Positions 51,469 to 63,521 of a DNA stretch of 64,000 bases are shown here, piece after piece. Where the stretch lies: positions 200,065-264,064 of the forward strand of contig CATOSP010000001.1 in assembly GCA_951812625.1 (NCBI GenBank). The letters are read 5' to 3'. Below the pieces are notes generated by a model. It was not told the DNA's origin, made no database searches, and saw only the letters and a list, made by a program, of their open reading frames with translations. The first letter of the stretch is position 1. Every line of letters starts with the position of its first letter. Position numbers and translations under genes: made by a program. This stretch comes from an uncultured Dehalococcoidia bacterium. Its GTDB lineage: Bacteria > Chloroflexota > Dehalococcoidia > Lucifugimonadales > UBA3495.

Positions 51469-51756
51469 TCACATGCACCGCTCTACCGGCAATAACACGA
51501 GAGCCCCCAAGCAGAGACCAAAGAGCACAAGGCCCACGAACACCGTCATTCGGATGAATCTCCGGTCCGCGAGGAGAGCCTCATCACTGACTTGGTACTG
51601 AGGCATGAACCGGACAATAACCGCGCCGACCACCATCACAACTCCAACCACAACGCCCAACGCCGCCAATGAACCCAGCGCACACATCACTCGCGCTCTT
51701 TCATGCCAAAGCAAACAGGCTGGCCCAACAGGATAGAAGATTGGCATCGCCAACAC
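51469..51756 (-). CDS. Small membrane protein (95 aa)
   Basis: Two or three hydrophobic helices. Confidence 0.4.
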   Translation of the reverse strand: MLAMPIFYPVGPACLLWHERARVMCALGSLAALGVVVGVVMVVGAVIVRFMPQYQVSDEALLADRRFIRMTVFVGLVLFGLCLGALVLLPVERCM

Positions 51757-51807
51757 TGCCGTGGGCCAGCTCCATCACCAAGCCACGGGTCTTCTGACAT
51801 AGAAAAA

Positions 51808-51845
51808 CCTCCCGTTCAACGGTGACCACTCACCGGAACGGGAGG
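51808..51845 (-). terminator. Strong intrinsic terminator (minus strand)
   Basis: 10-bp GC stem CCTCCCGTTC/GAACGGGAGG with a nested GGTGA/TCACC hairpin. On the minus strand it is followed by TTTTTCT. Confidence 0.6.
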
Positions 51846-52102
51846 CCAGGGTCGCTTGACTGCCGACGAAAACCTTAACGCCGTTGCTCATGGAGGACGC
51901 CCCCTTTCGGTGGTGGGATAGAGGCTACCTGCCAGAGCAACCTTGATCCTCAATGAGCCGCAAGGGGGCACGAATGCCCCTTTCCCAATGCTCACCGGAC
52001 AACGGACTCTCAAAGACTAACTGGGGTTGCTCTGGCACGCCCATTCAAGCACAGAGAGGGAGTGACTGTAAAGAAAACCCTGTCACAATTGTTTTACATG
52101 GC
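51846..52102 (-). ncRNA. Candidate structured RNA bounded by two minus-strand terminators
   Basis: A 12-bp long-range pairing (51931-51942 GCCAGAGCAACC with 52025-52036 GGTTGCTCTGGC) encloses a hairpin at 51962-51982. No convincing ORF. No class recognised. Confidence 0.25.
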
Positions 52103-52140
52103 AAAAAGAAAAGCCGCCGGCAGAGTCCGGCGACTTTGTT
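52103..52140. terminator. Hairpin with T-runs on both strands
   Basis: GCCGCCGG-CAGAGT-CCGGCGAC. The minus strand continues TTTTCTTTTT and the plus strand TTTGTT. Confidence 0.5.
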
Positions 52141-52619
52141 ATTATAGTAGAAAAGTTGGGCTGGAGGCCCCGATTTAGCTACGAACGCAACTTATGTCCC
52201 TGCCTCAACCCTGTTAGCAGTTTCCTGCACCCAAACCCCAAGATAGCCTAACACTTCCAACTCCTTTCAATAATGGATCGGCTATCGACTAACAAGAGTC
52301 GTCAGGGAGCGGTGGCCGTTGGCAGTCTGGGGTCGGGCCTTCCAGTCCCACCACACTGGACAAAATCAGGAACCTTCACCATCTCGTTCGCTTTAGCCCT
52401 GTAACCGGGCTGGCACCGCCCTGCCAAATGTATGCCCCGCGGGTGTAAATGGGGGTGCCGGGCGCGAATAGAGTGGGTCTGATGCCCCTGTAGCGAAACG
52501 AAGGGCATCGGTCATATACCGTCTCCCCTCACCGCTCCTGCTTCCCCCGAGACCCCATGCCTGCCTTTGCCCGGTCCTGAAGGTCTTGGCATTCCGTTAG
52601 CATAGGGTGCGCGGACAAT

Positions 52620-53225
52620 TCATTGCCTGGCGACGGTCTTCCTCCTTCGTGAGAACTGACGCTCTACTCCGGTGACCCTCATTCGGAAATCCATCATCTG
52701 CCTACTAACCCCAAATTCGTCGCACGCTACATCCTTCGGCCTCTTTTGGGCACTCAATCTCACAAGGGCATCCCTAGGTAGCAACAGGGCGCCAGCGAGC
52801 CAATTTGCCTCTTCTTCGGCAGCCTTGTTAAACCCACGTAAGGCGAGGTTCTCCTGCCCAGCGAAAAACATAGTGCTTGGTTCATGGCCTAGCAAGAGGT
52901 GAGCCAATTCGTGCATCACATCGCTGGAATAGCGACCACGCCGGTGATTTGGGTTTAGGATGATGGCGTCCCGGTTAGCGGCCGATACAGTTATAGCGGA
53001 CCAAGAATCCGGGTCGCTATGCACCAGTTGCGTGACGTCGGCAGGAGCTAATCCAAGGTCTTCGACTGACCAAAGATATACTCCCAAATACGACGCGAGT
53101 TGTTCTGCTGGTAAGGGGGCAGCCGGGTCCAAGCCTAACTCTGCTCGTAGCGAGCGGGACATCTCCTCACAGCGGGTTTTAAAGCCCTTCTCCATCCACT
53201 TCTCCCACCTTTCCAGGTGCATCAT
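52620..53225 (-). CDS. capP: ImmA/IrrE-family Zn metallopeptidase (CapP-like)
   Basis: HELAHLLLGH (HEXXH) and a 201-aa length. It lies immediately downstream of, and overlaps, the XRE gene. Confidence 0.7.
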   Translation of the reverse strand: MMHLERWEKWMEKGFKTRCEEMSRSLRAELGLDPAAPLPAEQLASYLGVYLWSVEDLGLAPADVTQLVHSDPDSWSAITVSAANRDAIILNPNHRRGRYSSDVMHELAHLLLGHEPSTMFFAGQENLALRGFNKAAEEEANWLAGALLLPRDALVRLSAQKRPKDVACDEFGVSRQMMDFRMRVTGVERQFSRRRKTVARQ

Positions 53226-53574
53226 GCAACATCAACTGTGCCCTGAGAATGGCGTTAGCCAGAGCGCCCGCCGTGTTCGGGTCGATCTCGCGATGTGCCT
53301 TCAGGTGCGCAGCAGCGACATGGGTAGGGGTTGTTTCCGTTGATTGGGGCGTAACGTCCAAAAGGGCACCCGGGTCTACACCTAGCCAGCGACATAGTTT
53401 CCCGAAGGTTTGGAGGTCGGGCATTTTGCCTGACTCAATGCGAGAGAGGGTCGGCGCGCTGGTGCCAATTTCGCTCGCCACCGTCCTAAGCCCTCGAGAA
53501 CCCCGTTTTTCACGGACAATGGTTCCTAGGTTCTGTAATGTGACCTTAACCACAGCGCCTCCCGTTCCAGCCAT
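53179..53574 (-). CDS. capH: XRE-family helix-turn-helix regulator (CapH-like)
   Basis: LRTVASEIGTSAPTLSRIESGK is an XRE HTH. The gene is divergent from the CBASS-like operon. Confidence 0.7.
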   Translation of the reverse strand: MAGTGGAVVKVTLQNLGTIVREKRGSRGLRTVASEIGTSAPTLSRIESGKMPDLQTFGKLCRWLGVDPGALLDVTPQSTETTPTHVAAAHLKAHREIDPNTAGALANAILRAQLMLHDAPGKVGEVDGEGL

Positions 53575-53686
53575 GAAACAACGTCTTGACAGCGTAACGT
53601 CTGTTGGGTTAGCCTATGCGTAACCCTAGCAAAACGCTGTTTCACTCGTGGTGATTGGATGATAATCAAGAACCAAGCCGTAGTCA
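53575..53686. promoter_or_regulatory. Divergent control region between the XRE regulator and the patatin gene
   Basis: TTGACA at 53586-53591 with TAGCCT about 18 nt downstream. ACGTCT is repeated at 53582 and 53597, and a related ACGCTGTT sits at 53634. Confidence 0.3.
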
Positions 53687-54667
53687 ATGGTGGTGTTCGG
53701 AGAGCTTGTCGTGTCTAGCTTCGACCGGACAAGGCCACCGACAGTTCCAACAGAGAGCTTCAGCATCCTGGCGGTGGATGGAGGTGGTACGAGAGGGATT
53801 TACGCCGCTCAAATCCTTGCCAAAGTCGAAGATGCTCTCGGGCGGCAGGTCAACGACTGTTTTGACCTTCTCGCTGGGACGAGCACCGGATCCATCATCA
53901 CGGGAGCCGCGGCGTCGGGAGTTCCATTGAAAGAAGTGGTCGCTTTATTCGAGAAAGAATCGCCGCGCATTTTTGGGAAAGCCCGCTTTCCTGCTCGCAT
54001 CTCCGTGTTCTGGCGTAGCCGGTACTCCAGGACGACTCTCGAAAGCGTGCTACAAGAATACCTGCCCCAGGCCGTCCTTCGGGATATATCGACCCCACTG
54101 ATGATAACGAGCGCTGATATAGCCACGGGCGGAGTCCACGTCTTCAAGTCCCGCTACTTGGGCGATCTCGGAGAACCCTATGAGAGGGACGGAGAGGTGC
54201 TCCTCAGCGATGCGATTCTTGCCTCCTGCGCGGCGCCGACCTATTTCGACCCCAAGGCAGTGGGGCCGTATCTGCTGACGGATGGCGGCCTTTGGGCCAA
54301 CAATCCGTCAATCATAGCGTTTACCGAGGCTGTATCAAAATTCAAGAAGGAGGTGGCGGAGGTAAGAGTTTTGTCCGTAGGCACTGGCCACACGACGACC
54401 ATGTACACGAAACGGAGTTCTTGGGGCCTCCTGACCGGATGGGGAGGTAACAAGCTGGTCTCATACACTTTGGGGCTTCAATCACAGGCTTCTACGAACA
54501 TGGCAAAGCTTATTTTAGGCGACCGATACCTGCGTCTTGACCCGGAGATTGACAGCTGGGAATTGGACGATACCAGGCACCTCGCTAACCTAAAAGCTCT
54601 CGCAGAGAGGGATTTCACATACCGGTCCAAAACAATCCTAGACCACATAAGGAGAAACACCGAATGA
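53687..54667 (+). CDS. Patatin-like phospholipase (CapV-like CBASS effector)
   Basis: DGGGTRG oxyanion motif, GTSTGS nucleophile elbow and a DGG catalytic Asp region. Confidence 0.85.
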   Translation: MVVFGELVVSSFDRTRPPTVPTESFSILAVDGGGTRGIYAAQILAKVEDALGRQVNDCFDLLAGTSTGSIITGAAASGVPLKEVVALFEKESPRIFGKARFPARISVFWRSRYSRTTLESVLQEYLPQAVLRDISTPLMITSADIATGGVHVFKSRYLGDLGEPYERDGEVLLSDAILASCAAPTYFDPKAVGPYLLTDGGLWANNPSIIAFTEAVSKFKKEVAEVRVLSVGTGHTTTMYTKRSSWGLLTGWGGNKLVSYTLGLQSQASTNMAKLILGDRYLRLDPEIDSWELDDTRHLANLKALAERDFTYRSKTILDHIRRNTE

Positions 54668-55623
54668 AGCGGGTAGAAGACTTCAACGAATTCCTGTCCA
54701 ACCATGTGAACATCAACCAGTCCCGGTTGGACGATCTGAACGACCATGTCGCGGCTGTGACGACGCACTTGAGTCGGGACTTGGAGTCGTTCAAAAAAGT
54801 GGAGCGCCAAGGCTCCTATGCCTTGCGGATGATTATCAAGCCGAAGGAAAAGAAGGAATACGACGCCGACGTGCTGCTCTTCATGAAGTACCAGCCGGGA
54901 AAGAAACCTGCCGAGTACATCAACGACGCTTACAACTGCCTCCGGCAACACGGCACCTACAAGGACATGGTGCATAGGAAGACCCGCTGCGTGATGGTGG
55001 ATTACGCCGGGGATTTTCACTTGGACATCGTTCCTTGCGTCGAGTTCAACGGCCAACGCTACGTCTGCAACAACAAGACCAACCAGTTCGAAGTCACGGA
55101 CGGAACCGGCTATCGGGACTGGTTCAACCGGAAGACCCAGATCACCAACGGCAATCTCAAGCGAGCCACAAGGGTTCTCAAGTATATGCGAGACCACAAG
55201 GGCAACTTCACCGCCCCTTCGATCCTCCTCACCACTCTTATCGGAATGAGTGTGCAGGACAACGAGGGCGACGCCTGCTTCAAAACCGTCCCCGACACGT
55301 TGAAGACGGTATGCAACCGCATAAACGCTTTCTTGCAGGCCAATCCCAACCAGCCCGAAATACGCAACCCGGTGCTACACCAGGAGACCTTCACGCGGCA
55401 TTGGGACCAGAACAAGTACCGGAACTTCCGGGACAAGTTCAAGATTTACAATGACCAAGTAAACGACGCCTATGATGAGACCGACCCCCAGAAGAGCGTA
55501 CAGAAATGGCAGAAGCTGTTCGGTGAGGACTTCGGCAAGTCGAAGTCCAAGAGCAGCGGAGCGTCTGGCGCCGCGGCAATGGCTGCCACGACCGTAACTC
55601 CCAGGAAGCCTTGGGCGAGATGA
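54664..55623 (+). CDS. SMODS/CD-NTase-type nucleotidyltransferase (putative cyclic oligonucleotide synthase)
   Basis: QGSYALRMIIKP....EYDADVLLF....FHLDIVPC gives the pol-beta GS / DxD / D triad. ATGA overlap with the patatin stop. Confidence 0.75.
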   Translation: MKRVEDFNEFLSNHVNINQSRLDDLNDHVAAVTTHLSRDLESFKKVERQGSYALRMIIKPKEKKEYDADVLLFMKYQPGKKPAEYINDAYNCLRQHGTYKDMVHRKTRCVMVDYAGDFHLDIVPCVEFNGQRYVCNNKTNQFEVTDGTGYRDWFNRKTQITNGNLKRATRVLKYMRDHKGNFTAPSILLTTLIGMSVQDNEGDACFKTVPDTLKTVCNRINAFLQANPNQPEIRNPVLHQETFTRHWDQNKYRNFRDKFKIYNDQVNDAYDETDPQKSVQKWQKLFGEDFGKSKSKSSGASGAAAMAATTVTPRKPWAR

Positions 55624-56252
55624 AACTGCAAGACACTGATCCGGAATGGCTGGCATCAAACTTCCCGGAATTGGATTTCCAGCCGGATGGCCAGCAGATT
55701 ACCGGGGAGCTTCGCTTCTGCGCTGCCTTTGACCGGGACTCAGGCCAACTGAGGTTGGGTGACACCGACGAGCATCGGGCAATTGGCACTTTTCTGTGCG
55801 ACGCGTTCAAGGTAAGGATCGACTTGGGCCATCTGGGAGACAATGGATGGCCCAGGGTCTATGAGGTTGGCGGGCGTTGCATCGACATTGCGGAGCAAAA
55901 TCAATGCGCTATGATTGACCTGCATCTGTTTGAAGATGGAGCTTGCTGCTTAGGTCTGAATTTCGCCACCGACAGGAATCTTACCCTTCACCGGTTTGTG
56001 CTCGAGCTGGTGATTCCCTTCTTTTACCGCCTGTCTTACACCGACCGTAATGGGTTGGCTGCTGCCAAGGACGACCTGTGGGGAGAGTATTTCCACGGGG
56101 ATGCTGGTGTACGCAAATACAAAGAGGAGATTCTCCAACTGGTCGGCAACAATCCTGGTAGAAACGAATCTTGCCCTTGCGGGAGTGGGCTAAAATACAA
56201 GAGATGCCACTTGGACGAAGTAGAAGCAGTTAAACGCCGTTGGTTGCGCTAA
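55620..56252 (+). CDS. SEC-C-motif protein, possibly an E2/UBC-like CBASS accessory
   Basis: C-terminal CPCGSGLKYKRCH. F.V.IDL....GWPRVYEVGG...IDLHLFEDGACCLGL resembles the UBC layout (YP..PP.v.F...HPN...G.iCl). ATGA overlap with the CD-NTase stop. Confidence 0.45.
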   Translation: MKLQDTDPEWLASNFPELDFQPDGQQITGELRFCAAFDRDSGQLRLGDTDEHRAIGTFLCDAFKVRIDLGHLGDNGWPRVYEVGGRCIDIAEQNQCAMIDLHLFEDGACCLGLNFATDRNLTLHRFVLELVIPFFYRLSYTDRNGLAAAKDDLWGEYFHGDAGVRKYKEEILQLVGNNPGRNESCPCGSGLKYKRCHLDEVEAVKRRWLR

Positions 56253-56278
56253 TTATCGTCCGATAGAGAGGGACGACC

Positions 56279-59200
56279 GTGACAACATCCACCGTCAACC
56301 CAATACCTTTCCGCCTTGAATCCACCTTCGGAGCCGGCCGAAAATGGACTTCCCAGGCTGGCTCTATTGCTACAGCCTGGGAGTTGCCCGCCTACCATCT
56401 GCTGTGGGCCGGTGACACAACCGCCGAAGGTGAAGTCCGCAGATTGTGGGAGGCGAGAAAGGGCCGCCAAGCCTATCCTGTGGTCCTACTGTCCCCGTCG
56501 GACGATGAAACGAAAGTCAAGGTGGCCGGCCCGCAGGACGCTCGCCCGGTACGGGAATTGCCCGTCGGCCGGGTACTCGACCTGCTGGAAGACAGCCATA
56601 ACCTAGCGGCCCGCGAAGCGGCATCGTTCCTGGCGAGGGAGTTCGCCCGCCTTGAGGAGGCCGTGGTTCCCGGCCTGCGGGTCAAGGACCTGCTCACGCC
56701 TCATTTCCTACGGGAGCGGATGCGCTGGCCCGTGAACCGGGGGCGATTGTCCGGCGCTGTTGAAGGCAAGGGACGCACTGGGAGTATCGCATGGCGCTCC
56801 CTGTTTCAGGAAATGGGTTACCAAGTGGAGCAACTGCCGCAGCGCGGCTACCTGCTCCGGTACGACAACGCTCCGGTTGCCGTCGTACATCCCCACCGCG
56901 ACCCATCCCAGTTCAGCCGTCTCACAGACAACGGGGAACTGCCCGAAGGAATGGTGCTGGCTGACTGCGGGCAGTACGGAGCTCAGTGGGGCGTCCTGGC
57001 AGCATCCGGACGCTACCGGCTTTTCCAGCGGCGGCCTCCGGTCGGCCCGGCTACCGGGCAGCACTTGGAAATAGATACGGCTGAGTTGGAACGGAAAGAC
57101 CGTTTTTATCTTGGCCTTCTTGCGCCGGAATCTCTCAAGGAAGATGGCTGGCTGACCGGGTGGGTTGCGGAAGCGAAGGACTTTGGCGAAGAGTTGCGCA
57201 AGGGACTGGAAGAGCGCCTGATCAAGGACGCGCTACCCAACATCGCCCGGGGCTTGGGCGAGTATCTTGAATCGCTGGGCACCGACTTGAACGACCCTGA
57301 ACAGCTTCGGCAGATTGAAGAGGCGGCGCTGACTCTGGTGTTTCGGTTCATGTTCCTGCTTCACACCGAAGCCCGTGGCTACCTGCCCATTGGTTCGGCG
57401 GCTTACCGACCCCACAGCGCCCGTCAACTGGCCGAGGATTCCCGCCTGGCCGGGTCTTCCCTCAGCCGGAAAGCCACACAACGGTGGGACCGCTTGCGGA
57501 CTCTCGTGCGGATGATTCGAACCGGGGACCGCTCCGCTGGGGTCCCCGCGTACAACGGCAGCCTGTTTGCTGCCGACGGCTTCCCCGGCAGCGCCTTGCT
57601 GGAACGGGCCGAGATTGCCGACGTTTACCTGGCTCCCGCCCTCGTGTCCATCGCCTATGAAACCGATAAGGTCGACTCTCCGGGGTTGGACTACGCCGGC
57701 CTACAAATCGGCCACCTTGGAGCCATCTATGAAGCCTTGCTGACCTTGAGGCTGACCCGTGCACCCGAAGACCTGGCCTACGATTCTAAGCGTGACATGT
57801 TTCGACCCATTCGTTCTGGAGAGAAGCCGGAGCTCACCAAGGCCCAACTCTATTACCAATCGGAGGCGGGCGGGCGCAAGGCTCGGGGAGTTTTTTACAC
57901 CCGCCACGAGTTCGTTAGCCACCTGCTGAATCATTCTCTGTTGCCCGCCCTCGACGACCATTTGGCCGAAATCGGGGAGGTGGCTGACCGGAGTCCCATT
58001 GAAGCCGCGCAGAGGCTCTTTGATTTCTCCGTTGTGGACCCGGCGATGGGCAGCGCCCACTTCCTCACGGCGGCCTTGGATATGATGGCCGACCGTATCG
58101 AGATTTTCCTGGCCGAGGTTGGCGGCTTGCCCGGTATTGCTCAGCAACTCAGCGAGTTGAGTCAGGACAGCGGAGCAGTCTCCCAGCAGCCGGAGGACGG
58201 GGACCTGCTGCGGCGACTCGTCCTAAAACGCTGCATCTACGGCGTTGACCTTTCCCCCATGGCGGTGGAAGTCGCCAATGTCACCCTGTGGCTGGCGTCT
58301 TTCGTCCCTGGTCTGGCCCTCTCCTACCTGGGCAGCAACCTTAAATGCGGCGATGCCCTCATCGGCGTGGCCGACCCTTCCGTTGTCGGGGCCAGCGACA
58401 GCCCCATGTTCACCGGCCAGAACGTGCGTAACGCGATGGAACAAGCGGCCCGGTTGCAACGGGAGCAGGCGGCCATTCCAGACCGTACTCCCGAAGAGGT
58501 CAAACGCTCCGAGGAACTTGGCGCTCAGCGCGACGAGGCTACCGCCGGTCTGCGGTCAGCTTTCGACCTGTGGACGGCGGAACCGCTGGGACTGGACGGC
58601 GCCCGCCATACCCTGGAGACCCACGCGGACTCCATCATCGAAGCTGGCAAACAGTCGGCTGCTGAAGTTACGGATGCGATTGCGGAAGCATCGCATATCG
58701 GCAGCCAATACCGCTTTTTCCACTGGCCCCTGGAGTTACCCAACGTTTTTTACCGGGAACGTGCAGGATTCGACGTGGTTGTGGGCAATCCACCGTGGAA
58801 CGAAATAACCATCGAGGAACTGGCCTTCTACGCGCTGCGTGAGCCAGGACTGCGTGGATTGCCTAATCTAGCTGAAAGAAGAAAGCGCATAGCGCAACTC
58901 GACAAACAAAACCCTGACTGGCGAGAGGAGTTTGAGGACCAGCAGAGACAATTGAAAACAGTCCGGGGGTTCTTTTCAGAAAGCGGGGGATACCAGCTTC
59001 AAGGAGTAGGCGACAAAGATCTGTACCAACTCTTTTGCGAGCGGTACAGCCATCTCGTTAGGCAGGATGGTCGTTTAGGAGTAGTGCTACCCAGAACGGC
59101 ATTCCTTGCAGAAGGTGCCAAGGGTTTCAGGAGATGGTTGTATGAGCGGACCACGGTAACGACGGTCGACTTTCTCTTGAATGCTGGGCGCTGGGCGTTT

Positions 59201-60262
59201 GATATGGAACCTCGGTACACAGTTGCACTGTTGACTGCTCAACGCAGAACACCAAGCAAGGAAGCCACTTTCCAAATAACAGGACCTTCCGCAAACCTCA
59301 AAGAGTTCCATGATGCGTCACTCGGCCAAGGCGTAAGCGTTCCGGCGTCCTCCTTGGGAAGCGCCCGGGTAGTGCCTCTGTTGCCAAGCCAGATGCACGC
59401 CGATGTGTTAGCCAAATTACGTCGCGGCGTCCAGTTCGATTCGCTCCAAAATCCCGAAAATCAAAAAATTTCAAAAGGGCGCGCTGCTGTGTCTCATCTA
59501 GCTCCCTATACGGAATTGCATGAGACACAGCAGCGCGCCCTTTTCTCTCATTCCAGAGGTTTTCCAGTGTGGAAGGGCCGGTCCTTTGATCAGTACGAGC
59601 CTCATGGTAATGAACCTGCCGGGTACTCCAAGTGGAATGAGGTCCTTTCTTGGGCACAACAGAAGCGCAAGCGATCCCCCGTCTTCAAGCGGATGTTCTC
59701 CACCGAAGAACTTTCCGATCCTAATACCCACCCAATAAACTACTGCCGAGTCGCATTCCGGGATGTGACACGAACCACCGACTCCCGAACAGTAAGAGCC
59801 TGCTTGGTTCCACCACGGACGCCGTTAACCAACAAAGGACCGTACTTGATATTTTCTGGGTGGAGCAGTTTGGCACAGGCCAGCGTCTTGGGGACTTTGA
59901 ACAGCCTTCCGTTTGACTGGATTGCCCGGCGTTACGTTGAAACGAACATGAACTACTTTATTTTGAATATGCTCACCTTCCCACCGCCAGCTAACACTCC
60001 TTGGCAGGGCATCGGCAGATTGGCAGCACGGCTGTCCTGCGTGGACGAGCGGTTCGCTGACTTTGCGGCGGAGACCGGAGTGCAGTGCGGGCCGTTGACC
60101 GATGCCGACCGCAACGACAAGCGGGCGGAAATCGACGCACTGGTGGCTCACGCCTACGGGCTGACCGAGGACGAACTGCGGTTCATATTCACCGACTTCA
60201 CCGAGAACGCTGTTACTCCCGCCTACCGGGAGAAAGTCTTGGAATGGTTCGAGCGTTTGTAA
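56279..60262 (+). CDS. Large N6-adenine DNA methyltransferase of the Eco57I / MmeI / PglX-like (type IIG / BREX / DISARM-MI) kind
   Basis: AYNGSLF, GVFYTRHEFV, VVDPAMGSAHFL (motif I, about nt 58034), IYGVDLSPMAVEVA and FHWPLELPNVF...FDVVVGNPPW (motif IV at nt 58787-58798). About 340 aa of the N-terminus are unassigned. Confidence 0.8.
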   Translation: MTTSTVNPIPFRLESTFGAGRKWTSQAGSIATAWELPAYHLLWAGDTTAEGEVRRLWEARKGRQAYPVVLLSPSDDETKVKVAGPQDARPVRELPVGRVLDLLEDSHNLAAREAASFLAREFARLEEAVVPGLRVKDLLTPHFLRERMRWPVNRGRLSGAVEGKGRTGSIAWRSLFQEMGYQVEQLPQRGYLLRYDNAPVAVVHPHRDPSQFSRLTDNGELPEGMVLADCGQYGAQWGVLAASGRYRLFQRRPPVGPATGQHLEIDTAELERKDRFYLGLLAPESLKEDGWLTGWVAEAKDFGEELRKGLEERLIKDALPNIARGLGEYLESLGTDLNDPEQLRQIEEAALTLVFRFMFLLHTEARGYLPIGSAAYRPHSARQLAEDSRLAGSSLSRKATQRWDRLRTLVRMIRTGDRSAGVPAYNGSLFAADGFPGSALLERAEIADVYLAPALVSIAYETDKVDSPGLDYAGLQIGHLGAIYEALLTLRLTRAPEDLAYDSKRDMFRPIRSGEKPELTKAQLYYQSEAGGRKARGVFYTRHEFVSHLLNHSLLPALDDHLAEIGEVADRSPIEAAQRLFDFSVVDPAMGSAHFLTAALDMMADRIEIFLAEVGGLPGIAQQLSELSQDSGAVSQQPEDGDLLRRLVLKRCIYGVDLSPMAVEVANVTLWLASFVPGLALSYLGSNLKCGDALIGVADPSVVGASDSPMFTGQNVRNAMEQAARLQREQAAIPDRTPEEVKRSEELGAQRDEATAGLRSAFDLWTAEPLGLDGARHTLETHADSIIEAGKQSAAEVTDAIAEASHIGSQYRFFHWPLELPNVFYRERAGFDVVVGNPPWNEITIEELAFYALREPGLRGLPNLAERRKRIAQLDKQNPDWREEFEDQQRQLKTVRGFFSESGGYQLQGVGDKDLYQLFCERYSHLVRQDGRLGVVLPRTAFLAEGAKGFRRWLYERTTVTTVDFLLNAGRWAFDMEPRYTVALLTAQRRTPSKEATFQITGPSANLKEFHDASLGQGVSVPASSLGSARVVPLLPSQMHADVLAKLRRGVQFDSLQNPENQKISKGRAAVSHLAPYTELHETQQRALFSHSRGFPVWKGRSFDQYEPHGNEPAGYSKWNEVLSWAQQKRKRSPVFKRMFSTEELSDPNTHPINYCRVAFRDVTRTTDSRTVRACLVPPRTPLTNKGPYLIFSGWSSLAQASVLGTLNSLPFDWIARRYVETNMNYFILNMLTFPPPANTPWQGIGRLAARLSCVDERFADFAAETGVQCGPLTDADRNDKRAEIDALVAHAYGLTEDELRFIFTDFTENAVTPAYREKVLEWFERL

Positions 60263-60263
60263 G

Positions 60264-63200
60264 ATGACTACTCGCCAGCCCCGGTTTACCCCCCTCGGCA
60301 GTTCTTACGAACTGGTCGATAACGATGTCTTCGGCTCCCACGAACAGGCGTTGGAGTGGCTGGCGAACACCTATGTCGATCCCCTCAACGTCGCCACCGG
60401 ATACGTCAGTCTGGAAGGGCTGGACGCACTGGCGAAGATAGTGACCGGCAGGGTCGGCGGAGGCAGGCTCCTTATCGGGGCAACCCCCTTGTCCGAGAGC
60501 CTAATTGGTCCGGTAAGCGAGACCATAGCCGGGCGGCTTGAACAATCGGTGAGTTCGCTGGGGCGGCAGCGGGACTTCTCGGCCTTTCCTGCCGCCCGCC
60601 GGGCTGTCCTGGAGCGGGTGACAGGTTTCATCGAGGCCGGGAACGTTGAGGTTAAACGGTACGCCAGGGGCTTCCTGCACGGCAAGGCGTACATCTTCGG
60701 CGATTTCGAAGGCAGGACCATCGGGACCGGCGCGGCCCTGGTTTCTTCGGCCAACCTCACCTTCGGCGGCTTGGTGTCCAACCGGGAACTGGGCATGGTT
60801 CACTACCAGCCCAACGTGGTGGCGATGGCGTTGGACTGGTATCAGCGCTTGTGGGATGACGCCTTGGATTTTCGGGAAGGGTTGCTGGAACTGCTGCGAC
60901 CTCCGTTACTGGAGAGCGATCCGCAAACCGTGTTCCTGCGGGCTCTGCTGGAACTTTACCAGAGCGACTTAGATGACGCTGAAGTTGACCTTCCCGACCT
61001 CCACACGCTTACCGCTTTCCAACGGGACGGGTTGGCGCGGGCCAAACGCATTCTGGATCAGCACGGCGGCGTCCTTTACGCCGACGGCGTGGGCATGGGT
61101 AAGACCGAGATCGGCGTCCAGTTCATCCGGGAGTACATTCGGGACCGTGGGCAATACGCTCTGGTAATCTCCCCGGCACAGTTGCGGGACCACCTGTGGG
61201 ACCAGCGCCTGAGCGAAGAGAACGTCCGCACAACCGTGGTTTCCTATCAACAGTTGGCCCAAGACCGCCAACTCGTCGCTCGCGGCGGGCGACAAGTCTT
61301 ACCGGTAGATAAGGACTCATACCGGTTGGTCGTAATTGACGAGGCACACGCCTACCGCAACGTGGACAACACCTGGTACGCGGCACTGGACCGCCTCATG
61401 GGAGGTACGCCGAAGAAGCTGCTCCTTTTGACCGCCACGCCGGTCAACAACTCCCTGTGGGATCTGCACAACCTCTTCCTACTATTCGCACGCCACGACA
61501 GCGCCTTCAGTGGGGAACCACTGAGGATTTCCAGCTTGCGGAAGTTCTTTACCGACGCCGGCGCGTCCAGGACTGAAAACCTCTCTGAGGCCAAGCTGTT
61601 CCCTTTGGTCGACGCTCTGACGGTGCGGCGTGACAGGGCTTTTATCAAGGACCGCTACCGGAACGAGCGATTCATTGACGGAACGCCAGTCAAGTTCCCC
61701 GAACCGGAACTGCATGAGCGCCGTTATGACTTGGACAACGCCCATCCCGGAATCGTCCAGGCCATTTACGACGGGATAGACGGTCTGACAATGGCCCGTT
61801 ATCGCCTGTCAGCCTATAGGGTAGACAAACAGGAAGAGTCAGCGTCGGAAGAAGCGCTGGCCGGTTTGATACAGTCCCAATTGCTGAAACGCTTCGAGTC
61901 GTCCTGGTATGCGGCGCTGCAAACCGTGAACAGGATGCGAGATGGCAACGACGTGCTGCTACGTGTTATCAGAGAGCGGGGAGTTGTGCCGCCTCCGGAG
62001 GTCATCAGGGACTTGGTTGGCGATTCCAGAGAGGATGACACCTTCCTTAGCACCGACCTGATTGACGAGGCATTGGCCGACTCCGAGGGCGGGATTTCCG
62101 CTGACAAGTTCAACGACCATTTCTTGCCAGACTTGGAAAGAGACCGGGATGCCCTGGCAGCCATGTCAATACAGTTGGAGCACTTGGAGGGCAGACCCGA
62201 TCCCAAGCTGGATACCCTCACAGAGGTAATGTCCGCGACGCCCTCCCAGAAGATAGCGGTGTTCACAGCTTTCCAGGACACCGCCACCTACTTGAAGGAG
62301 CAAATCGAGAGTCAACCGGAAGTGTTAGGGCACCGTAATTGGACGGTGGTGATTGGTTCCGAGACCAGTGCCGATGCCCGTACCAGGGAGCTTGAAAGGT
62401 TCTGCCCGGAGTCGGTCACGGACGAGCCGGGCTTTGTGCCTGAAAACGGCGAAGTGGACGTAATCATCAGCACCGACATCCTCTCGGAGGGGCAGAACCT
62501 TCAGCAAGCCCAAGCTGTACTCTCTTTTGACATGCCCTGGAACCCCCAGCGCGTAGTGCAGCGCAATGGCCGCATCATCCGCCTGCGCAGCCCCCACGAC
62601 ACCGCGTACCTCTACACTCTGCTTCCCGAACAGGGGGACCTGGACCGACTGTTGAGACTGGAGGCCAAGCTCCAGGCAAAAATTATGGCAGCGAACGCGT
62701 CAGTGGGTATGGAAACTCCGGTGTTGGCCGACGTAGAAACCGAATCTCAAGTGTACGCTGATCTGAACACTTTTGTAGAACGTCTTGCCAGTGGAGACAC
62801 GACCCTGCTGGACGAGCAGGAAAGCAGCGGGGAGAGCGGTTCGGCGTTTGCGGGTGAACTATTCCGCTCCCATCTTCGCCGGGCGGCCGAGGAAGGCGAA
62901 GTGGACCGGCTCCAGAGCTTGCCCTGGGGCATCGGAGCCGCTTTCGTTCAACGACTGCCGTCACTGGCGGAGCCTGCGGTGTTCTTCGCCTGCCGCACTC
63001 GTGGCGATGAACGCTACTGGCGCATGGTGTCCCAATCAGGAGAAATCCTGCACCGGGATGACTTACCGATGCTCCGCTTGATAGACCCCCAGCAACAACC
63101 TGGCATTCCTGTCCCCGATGGTCTCGACCTGGAGCATCTGTTTACGGTTGCTGCCGACGACATCTGCGCCGAGCATAACGCGCTGCTCGACCCTGAAACG

Positions 63201-63521
63201 CGGTTCGCTTCCCTTCCGGCCAGCCAGCGTTGGGCGCTGGACGTATTACGTTCACCGGACGCTCCATCCGGCGATGAGTACGACGAGGGAGACCAAGCCC
63301 TTTCGGTAGGCCGGAACAACCTAGTCAGGCGTCAGTTATCCGAACTGCGGCGGGAGTACGAAGGTGGCGGCATGAGCGTGACTGACTGTGCTCGTCGGAT
63401 CACAGAAGTAGTCGCACAGTTCGGACTGCGCGTGGTGGGACTTCCCCAAGCTCCCGAACCTATAACTGAGGACGACCTTGGAGTCGTCTGCTACCAGGTG
63501 GTGGTGCCGTCGAGAATGTAG
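60264..63521 (+). CDS. PLD-nuclease / SNF2-family helicase fusion
   Basis: LHGKAYIF...SSANLT is a single HKD motif (about nt 60678-60761). SNF2 motifs are DGVGMGKT, VIDEAHAYRN, LLLTATPVNNSLWDL, SEGQNLQ and QRNGRIIR. The start lies 1 nt after the MTase stop. Confidence 0.8.
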   Translation: MTTRQPRFTPLGSSYELVDNDVFGSHEQALEWLANTYVDPLNVATGYVSLEGLDALAKIVTGRVGGGRLLIGATPLSESLIGPVSETIAGRLEQSVSSLGRQRDFSAFPAARRAVLERVTGFIEAGNVEVKRYARGFLHGKAYIFGDFEGRTIGTGAALVSSANLTFGGLVSNRELGMVHYQPNVVAMALDWYQRLWDDALDFREGLLELLRPPLLESDPQTVFLRALLELYQSDLDDAEVDLPDLHTLTAFQRDGLARAKRILDQHGGVLYADGVGMGKTEIGVQFIREYIRDRGQYALVISPAQLRDHLWDQRLSEENVRTTVVSYQQLAQDRQLVARGGRQVLPVDKDSYRLVVIDEAHAYRNVDNTWYAALDRLMGGTPKKLLLLTATPVNNSLWDLHNLFLLFARHDSAFSGEPLRISSLRKFFTDAGASRTENLSEAKLFPLVDALTVRRDRAFIKDRYRNERFIDGTPVKFPEPELHERRYDLDNAHPGIVQAIYDGIDGLTMARYRLSAYRVDKQEESASEEALAGLIQSQLLKRFESSWYAALQTVNRMRDGNDVLLRVIRERGVVPPPEVIRDLVGDSREDDTFLSTDLIDEALADSEGGISADKFNDHFLPDLERDRDALAAMSIQLEHLEGRPDPKLDTLTEVMSATPSQKIAVFTAFQDTATYLKEQIESQPEVLGHRNWTVVIGSETSADARTRELERFCPESVTDEPGFVPENGEVDVIISTDILSEGQNLQQAQAVLSFDMPWNPQRVVQRNGRIIRLRSPHDTAYLYTLLPEQGDLDRLLRLEAKLQAKIMAANASVGMETPVLADVETESQVYADLNTFVERLASGDTTLLDEQESSGESGSAFAGELFRSHLRRAAEEGEVDRLQSLPWGIGAAFVQRLPSLAEPAVFFACRTRGDERYWRMVSQSGEILHRDDLPMLRLIDPQQQPGIPVPDGLDLEHLFTVAADDICAEHNALLDPETRFASLPASQRWALDVLRSPDAPSGDEYDEGDQALSVGRNNLVRRQLSELRREYEGGGMSVTDCARRITEVVAQFGLRVVGLPQAPEPITEDDLGVVCYQVVVPSRM

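Follow-up and report, generated by a model that had tools for sequence, protein, structure and literature searches.

Gene content of the locus

We analysed a 64,000-nt stretch of DNA from an uncultured Dehalococcoidia bacterium (contig CATOSP010000001.1, positions 200,065 to 264,064; hereafter the window, in whose coordinates all positions are given), and focused on a gene at 55620–56252 (plus strand). This gene encodes an E2-like ancillary protein of a CBASS, a system of antiphage signalling based on cyclic oligonucleotides: 210 aa in length, it consists of a ubiquitin-conjugating (UBC)-like core of residues ~1–176 followed by a SEC-C zinc knuckle. Directly upstream on the same strand lie the genes for a CD-NTase (SMODS) cyclase of 319 aa (54664–55623; Pfam SMODS E=2.7e-31, PADLOC Cyclase E=9.4e-117) and for a CapV-type patatin phospholipase effector (53687–54667; Pfam Patatin E=6.3e-27, PADLOC phospholipase effector E=7e-83), the latter also recognised by the NCBIfam model of CBASS cGAMP-activated phospholipases (CBASS_lipase; 238 bits against a cut-off of 200). 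The E2 gene begins with an ATG (55620) that shares an ATGA with the stop codon of the CD-NTase gene, and the 3' end of the patatin gene overlaps the cyclase start in the same ATGA arrangement; patatin, CD-NTase and E2 are translationally coupled, which fits a single operon. An alternative upstream TTG start at 55611 is possible for the E2 gene; its homologues begin at the ATG. Short minus-strand open reading frames within the E2 gene (54–62 aa) were considered and found unsupported, and no competing minus-strand gene is evident.

Pfam and PADLOC scans revealed no E1 (ThiF) or JAB gene in or adjoining the operon, the flanks being occupied by genes for a helix-turn-helix (HTH) protein, an M78 metallopeptidase, a type IIG methyltransferase and an HKD-SNF2 protein. 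Assessed by the classification of Millman et al. 2020 as PADLOC implements it, the locus contains a cyclase, an effector in the same operon and an E2-only ancillary gene without E1 or JAB. An operon with CapH/CapP-like regulators, a CapV patatin, a CD-NTase and an E2 that lacks E1 and JAB corresponds to type II-short (E2-only) CBASS; the locus is a bona fide system of this type, with every defining part of that classification present. The initial annotation of this DNA had taken the 210-aa protein for the third gene of such a system, with a UBC/E2-like core, and this assignment is upheld by matches to CBASS E2 models and by an E2/UEV-like topology with corresponding fold matches.

The 210-aa protein belongs to the CBASS E2 families

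Seven PADLOC CBASS E2 models matched the 210-aa protein, the best of which (PDLC00872, E=2.8e-24) aligned residues 12–205 with profile positions 12–194 of 216; because this match spans the knuckle, SEC-C-bearing E2 proteins already lie within the catalogued CBASS E2 families. PADLOC E2 models also matched all of the 81 family representatives (24–52% identity) that we aligned for the analysis of conservation. Furthermore, a search with the E2 core alone (residues 1–175) against 1.84 billion representative sequences (E<=1e-3) retrieved 310 clusters, several of which are cyclase-E2 fusions of 476–607 aa.

The AlphaFold2 model of the protein, built with 33 homologues, reached a predicted local distance difference test score (pLDDT) of 90.1 and a predicted template-modelling score (pTM) of 0.85, and displays UBC-type topology, in which a helix at the N-terminus and an antiparallel beta-meander of four to five strands precede the loop with the Cys and the helices of the C-terminal part. 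By DSSP assignment, a helix (residues 6–14) is followed by strands at 18–21, 26–38, 43–46, 59–72 and 78–82, by the loop that carries H102 and C110, by helices at 123–144, 146–152 and 160–176, and finally by the knuckle. Comparison with the PDB using Foldseek placed UFC1, UEV or E2 proteins at about 38 of the top 50 matches, with probabilities up to 0.99, so that the fold check proposed in the initial annotation came out in favour of the E2 analogy, at weak scores. The sequence stretches on which that analogy had been drawn are all present in the protein, namely FKVRIDL (63–69), GWPRVYEVGG (76–85), IDLHLFEDGACCLGL (99–113) and the SecA-type motif CPCGSGLKYKRCH (185–197); the last of these had been described as the end of the protein, and is in fact followed by 13 residues. 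Taken together, the E2 assignment is solid at the level of family and fold, and the protein forms a remote branch at the level of sequence.

Conserved active-site residues

The active-site loop of the protein runs from H102 to C110 (DLH-x6-CC; 55923–55949, plus strand). Among the 81 representatives, H102 is kept in all and C110 in 80, whereas its neighbour C109 is kept in just 42 of these distant sequences. The initial annotation had pointed to the CC pair and expected a conserved Cys there in homologues; as C110 is nearly invariant and C109 is not, the proposed catalytic cysteine of the pair is C110. A second invariant histidine, H159 (81/81; 56094–56096, plus strand), lies in a WGEY-x-HG motif. 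Chance does not account for these features, given this conservation and that of the knuckle cysteines and of the cyclase tail described below.

The reference for such residues is the E2-CBASS of Serratia marcescens (SmCdnG-SmE2; Yan et al. 2024 Nat Microbiol, preprint at 10.1101/2022.05.25.493364; Xiao et al. 2026, PMC12948482; PDB 8HSB, 8YJY), in which C101 and H87 of SmE2 form a cysteine-protease-like dyad and H152 is a second active-site histidine, H87 and H152 being conserved solely in the E2s of E2-only CBASS (10.1101/2022.05.25.493364). The 210-aa protein has the same arrangement of a catalytic Cys with an upstream and a downstream His. The spacing from the Cys to H159 is 43–52 residues in nearly all members of the family and 51 in SmE2; that from the upstream His to the Cys is usually 8 and reaches 14, the SmE2 value, in two members. 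Judged by pattern and spacing, H102, C110 and H159 appear to mirror H87, C101 and H152 of SmE2, with H159 as the proposed H152 equivalent. K166, seven residues past H159, was considered as the equivalent of the SmE2 acceptor lysine K159 and rejected, this column being Glu in 66 of the 81 sequences.

A conserved alanine-containing tail on the cyclase

The AlphaFold2 model of the cyclase (pLDDT 87.6) is confident over residues 1–290, resembles CdnD, CdnB, CdnC and CdnG in Foldseek comparisons (template-modelling (TM) scores of 0.7–0.83, up to 0.83 for CdnD) and contains the invariant catalytic residues G50-S51, D67, D69 and D121. Its last helix ends at residue 286, and residues 295–319 (55546–55620, plus strand; pLDDT <50) form a disordered C-terminal tail that closes with P313-R-K-P-W-A318-R319. 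The reading of the C-terminus as ...TVTPRKPWAR in the initial annotation was therefore correct; from the missing glycine it had concluded that the E2 analogy is wrong, that the chemistry differs, or that the SEC-C domain provides a new regulatory input.

We surveyed this tail in 111 full-length cyclase homologues (57–92% identity; the homologues of the window cyclase are 313–345 aa long). The last seven residues proved to be the best conserved stretch of the disordered tail, with the consensus [T]P[R]KP[Y/W]-A-X: the penultimate residue is Ala in 94 of the 111 and Ser in nine, and the final residue is variable (R in 71, W in 10, K in nine, Q in seven, and others), with two or three residues past the Ala in a few homologues. 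The near-terminal Gly of the Serratia type was found in one relative; the architecture of the tails, an aromatic residue followed by a small residue and one to six trailing residues, is the same as in Serratia.

The motif extends beyond free-standing tails of this cyclase family. Five close natural fusions of cyclase and E2 (557 aa) carry PRKPYA(R) internally, followed by a linker of ~22 residues and the E2, and all 12 distant fusion representatives keep P-x-x-[Y/W]-[A/S] 8–45 residues before the E2 domain. One natural fusion has Ser in place of Ala. A 388-aa DncV-like cyclase of a different family, paired with its own SEC-C E2, ends in ...SKSYAR. The relative with Gly, in genome G318, has the tail ...PRRPYG followed by RHGWSL, with the Gly at the Ala position and six trailing residues. 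The E2 gene of this system (L084/L085, G318:C1:2777508-2781130) is split by a frameshift into parts that match residues 1–152 and 149–208, and the system may be decaying.

The conservation of the tail, the fusions and the Gly variant together make up the pattern expected of a processing and attachment site, in which the residues past the small residue are the leaving group. SmCdnG ends in Y405-G406-E407, and SmE2 alone cuts off anything past G406, even maltose-binding protein or green fluorescent protein; the resulting G406~C101 thioester converts to an isopeptide, and a G406A variant still links (10.1101/2022.05.25.493364; PMC12948482). In the E1-E2 type II system of Enterobacter cloacae, CdnD is conjugated through a C-terminal Ala (...GRFA), and a later paper sums up the conjugated cyclase residue as "glycine or alanine". 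By analogy with these systems, Ala318 is likely to be the attachment site after removal of R319. Because the conserved [Y/W]-Ala-X tail matches the Tyr-Gly-Glu of SmCdnG, where G406A is tolerated, the paradox of the missing glycine mostly dissolves: the absent Gly is not an anomaly, the choice posed by the initial annotation falls away for the most part, and the chemistry need not differ from that of the Serratia system.

The SEC-C zinc knuckle

The knuckle occupies residues 181–198 (56160–56213, plus strand), with C185, C187, C196 and H197 as ligands. It follows the CxC-x8-C[H/C] pattern above the gathering threshold of Pfam SEC-C (PF02810; 37.3 bits against a cut-off of 20.4) and matches SecA zinc-finger peptides in the PDB (E=1e-05). 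Each of C185, C187 and C196 is present in 81/81 representatives, and the fourth ligand position, 197, is occupied by His (52) or Cys (29); from this pattern the knuckle is predicted to bind zinc. Two lysines within it, K192 and K194, are also conserved. In the wider set of 99 family representatives in the full-length range, 82 (~83%) carry the CxC...C[H/C] knuckle; variant knuckles occur in several of the remainder, of which at least one represents half of a gene broken by a frameshift. Short homologues that seem to lack SEC-C were accordingly not accepted as natural short forms, at least one of them (P0128) being the first half of a frameshifted gene.

The C-terminal zinc finger of SecA and the SEC-C proteins of the YchJ type share the CxC-x8-C[H/C] knuckle with conserved G-S-G-x-K-Y-K. 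In the window, by contrast, the knuckle sits on an E2 core in a defence operon, with neither a translocase nor an NTF2-like domain, and there is no evidence of SecB or ribosome binding by this E2 knuckle. In the literature library searched, no paper was found that ties SEC-C motifs to CBASS E2 proteins. Our leading guess for the knuckle is a docking role, or that of a structural clamp, which would make up for the folded E2-binding motif of Serratia CdnG that these short cyclases lack; SecA-like localisation, zinc or redox gating, and a supply of acceptor lysines (K192/K194) are alternatives.

As a separate observation, PDC-S12, a candidate defence protein in PADLOC, is matched at its C-terminus by the SEC-C region alone (56142–56213, residues 175–198; E=1.3e-4), and 25 of the 81 E2 relatives match it too, a hint that other defence proteins also end in SEC-C knuckles.

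Related systems and their distribution

The initial annotation had tied the E2 analogy to homologues that keep company with nucleotidyltransferase genes, and this is what we observed: in the 16 related systems inspected, the E2 lies directly 3' of a CD-NTase in 14 and is fused to one in two. In a tally of 12 unfused systems, each with a CD-NTase directly upstream of the E2, this cyclase is intact and ends in the tail motif in all except that on the short contig L092, and a patatin gene precedes it in at least nine. A patatin gene accompanies 11 systems (L086–L091, L094, the second operon of L093, G318 and the fusion genomes G143 and G310, in both of which the cyclase-E2 fusion stands behind the patatin gene); this tally leaves out L001, L092 and the first operon of L093, which is near a SAVED-domain gene. 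An M78 gene adjoins the CBASS genes at five of the six loci L086–L091, and an HTH and M78 pair is located upstream in L086, L089 and L091.

This large environmental E2 branch comprises, at 50% identity, the 310 clusters retrieved with the core, for example from metagenome-assembled genomes of Chloroflexota and Poribacteria, and it was found in 4 of the 401 genomes sampled from the phylum of the window, a sporadic occurrence such as is expected for a mobile defence gene. A scan of the genome contigs was dominated by the generic SEC-C peptide pattern and gave one full-length relative (L001) among 80 loci.

Two further arrangements were observed. Metagenomes, as well as genomes from the phylum of the window, contain natural single-polypeptide fusions of CD-NTase, E2 and SEC-C, 541–567 aa in length and with the PRKPYA site kept in the linker (L082 in G143, L083 in G310, P0330, P0337, P0338, P0350 and P0375). 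Furthermore, L093:902-6726 contains two tandem CBASS operons, each with its own SEC-C E2: the first encodes the 388-aa DncV-like cyclase, the E2 and a SAVED-domain protein, and the second a patatin, a 322-aa cyclase with the tail ...PKLYAR, and the E2.

Comparison with known systems

The window system resembles the Serratia E2-CBASS in its three-part operon of cyclase, effector and stand-alone E2 without E1 or JAB, in the two conserved His that flank the catalytic Cys of the E2, and in a cyclase tail made of an aromatic, a small and one trailing residue (Y-G-E in Serratia, W-A-R here), and the two have related cyclase cores (8hsb, E=7.7e-12; TM 0.7). Xiao et al. (PMC12948482) described the cyclases of E2-CBASS as long and mostly of clade G, with a conserved C-terminal helix and three-strand sheet that recruits the E2 and a tail that is unconserved beyond the Gly. 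The two systems differ in cyclase length, motif and tail: the window cyclase has 319 aa compared with 407 aa and, in its AlphaFold2 model, a disordered tail in place of the folded helix and three-strand E2-binding motif of a ~400-aa cyclase, and Ala replaces Gly within a linear tail that is strongly conserved across the subfamily. The E2 proteins differ as well, with 210 aa and a C-terminal SEC-C knuckle here compared with ~162 aa in Serratia, with no conserved acceptor Lys here, and with a divergence too great for HMMER profiles to connect them. A covalent cyclase-E2 thioester or isopeptide adduct and poly-cyclase chains are further marks of the Serratia type.

Type II CBASS with Cap2 (E1-E2 fusion) and Cap3 (JAB) (Ledvina et al. 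2023; Jenson et al. 2023), for instance in Vibrio cholerae and E. cloacae, likewise have a disordered cyclase tail, with conjugation at its last small residue (Gly, or Ala in E. cloacae), and a CapV patatin effector is common among them. Unlike these, the window system has neither an E1 adenylation domain nor a JAB isopeptidase, and its presumptive conjugated residue is not the last one, so that proteolytic exposure would be needed.

Proposed mechanism and alternative explanations

From the domains identified, the fold, the gene order and the conservation of key residues and of the tail, we infer a cleavage site, a covalent chemistry, a priming step and a role for the SEC-C knuckle, and we consider it probable that the 210-aa protein is an E2-like regulator of a type II-short CBASS operon that works along the lines of the Serratia system. 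The E2 would bind the disordered CD-NTase tail (...TPRKPWA-R), and C110, helped by H102, would cut after A318, releasing R319 and leaving an A318~C110 thioester. Since the energy would come from the peptide bond, no E1 or ATP would be needed for this step. The acyl group might then pass to a lysine, which could belong to the E2, to another cyclase molecule or to some other target, and thereby prime the cyclase. Upon infection, the cyclic nucleotide made by the cyclase would activate the CapV phospholipase, with destruction of the membrane and death of the infected cell, and CapH/CapP probably gate transcription of the operon, as the published module suggests.

Several observations weigh against this interpretation. 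The Foldseek scores of the E2 model are modest to weak (best E=3.9e-3; TM 0.33–0.46), and the deposited SmE2 chain is absent from the top 50 matches. HMMER searches of the PDB sequences with the single protein, a close-family profile (A1) and a wide-family profile (A2) reached no solved E2, SmE2 included, and returned only SecA/YchJ knuckles. The comparison with Pfam families proposed in the initial annotation was negative, in that Prok-E2_A to E and UQ_con gave no match to the 210-aa protein at E<=0.1; among the 81 relatives, scanned at E<=1, there were two weak matches to PF20298 (E2-ntca, E=0.032) and one to RWD, nothing usable. The equivalence of H102/C110/H159 with the SmE2 residues was drawn from pattern and spacing rather than from a direct alignment, and the acceptor lysine K159 of SmE2 has no conserved counterpart. 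The cyclase at L092:1653-3425 has a tail (...ISKPYYWE) with no small residue, Ala or Gly, after the aromatic; this cyclase appears split or ambiguous (X residues), and its E2 (P0207, 29% identity) is the most distant relative whose locus was inspected. Finally, the covalent chemistry proposed for the SEC-C E2 subfamily is carried over by analogy from the Serratia enzyme.

The absence of a conserved lysine at the K159-equivalent position, together with the lack of E1 and JAB in E2-only systems, would be compatible with an E2-like protein that is merely a protease or a non-covalent partner, which trims or holds the cyclase tail (for example, keeping the cyclase inactive until infection) and forms no productive conjugate, no lysine transfer product and no cyclase chains. 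We regard this as unlikely, given that the Cys/His/His set matches an enzyme shown to form thioester and isopeptide links, that cleavage by a Cys nucleophile necessarily proceeds through an acyl-enzyme, and that the conserved K192 and K194 of the knuckle could be acceptors. It is improbable, too, that the conserved tail is not the substrate of the E2 and has some other purpose, for instance membrane targeting, or a sensor or degron function that involves a protease of phage or host, with the E2 modifying another substrate. Phage prohead proteases are indeed known from published work to activate CD-NTases by cutting exposed loops, and TPRKP[Y/W]A is far more conserved than has been reported for tails of the Serratia type; however, the motif accompanies the SEC-C E2 across two cyclase families, occupies, in natural fusions, the linker immediately ahead of the E2, and is followed by variable residues that fit a leaving group.

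The Pfam and NCBIfam scans of the 210-aa protein recognised SEC-C alone, and public records name its homologues "SEC-C metal-binding domain-containing protein", both of which would be expected of a generic SEC-C/YchJ-like metal-binding protein whose likeness to E2 is fortuitous. There is little to recommend this explanation, which we consider very improbable: the core without the knuckle retrieves the 310 clusters that include cyclase fusions, the PADLOC E2 models cover that core, the fold matches are E2/UEV proteins, and the invariant residues fall in the E2 active-site loop. Within the Serratia-like mechanism that we prefer, a more specific role of the knuckle is conceivable and is put forward tentatively. 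It may mark a distinct, uncharacterised branch of E2-only CBASS, in which it replaces the folded E2-binding motif of the cyclase in capturing the TPRKP[Y/W]A tail, or in which it contributes an input that the Serratia model does not have, such as SecA-like tethering to the ribosome, the membrane or anionic lipid, gating of the E2 by zinc or redox state, or acceptance of the acyl group by K192/K194.

Of the ubiquitin-like conjugation machines known, E2-only CBASS is the simplest: the parts of protease, E1, E2 and E3 all fall to a single small enzyme. To our knowledge, all mechanistic work on it so far comes from one Serratia system, three traits of which have been generalised, namely the terminal glycine, the folded motif by which the cyclase binds the E2, and the long cyclases of clade G. 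The window locus belongs to a branch with a SEC-C knuckle, an Ala tail and a short cyclase, which has been catalogued computationally and is mechanistically undescribed; it departs from all three of these generalisations and has the zinc knuckle in addition. Recognition of this branch corrects the public "SEC-C metal-binding" annotation and, as far as the conserved tails indicate, implies that Ala or Ser can function as the attachment residue, and the natural cyclase-E2 fusions are ready-made substrates for studies of self-processing. The locus reveals no new kind of system.

Regulatory and flanking genes

Divergent from the CBASS genes, on the minus strand, are genes for a CapH-like XRE HTH repressor (53179–53574; Pfam HTH_3 E=3.6e-08) and for its regulator partner, a CapP-like ImmA/IrrE (Peptidase_M78) metallopeptidase (52620–53225; Pfam Peptidase_M78 E=4.2e-16). 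In their mutual overlap and in their orientation they resemble the CapH/CapP transcriptional switch module (bioRxiv 10.1101/2022.04.27.489752); the assignment here is one of domain content and position, the cleavage and the response to DNA damage being known from the published module. The divergent promoter region between the CapH-like and patatin genes contains an imperfect inverted repeat (53574–53644) with 26-nt arms at 53574–53599 and 53619–53644 (77% complementary, 19-nt spacer), which is a candidate CapH operator, and a promoter-like site was detected on the minus strand at 53687–53659. An Rfam scan of 51500–56600 found no RNA family.

Directly 3' of the E2 gene, a large Eco57I-type methyltransferase and a PLD-SNF2 helicase are encoded (56279–63521). 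The same order recurs, again immediately behind the E2, at L091:6659-12699, where the E2 is 76% identical to that of the window, so that the CBASS genes and this restriction-type pair travel together in at least two genomes.

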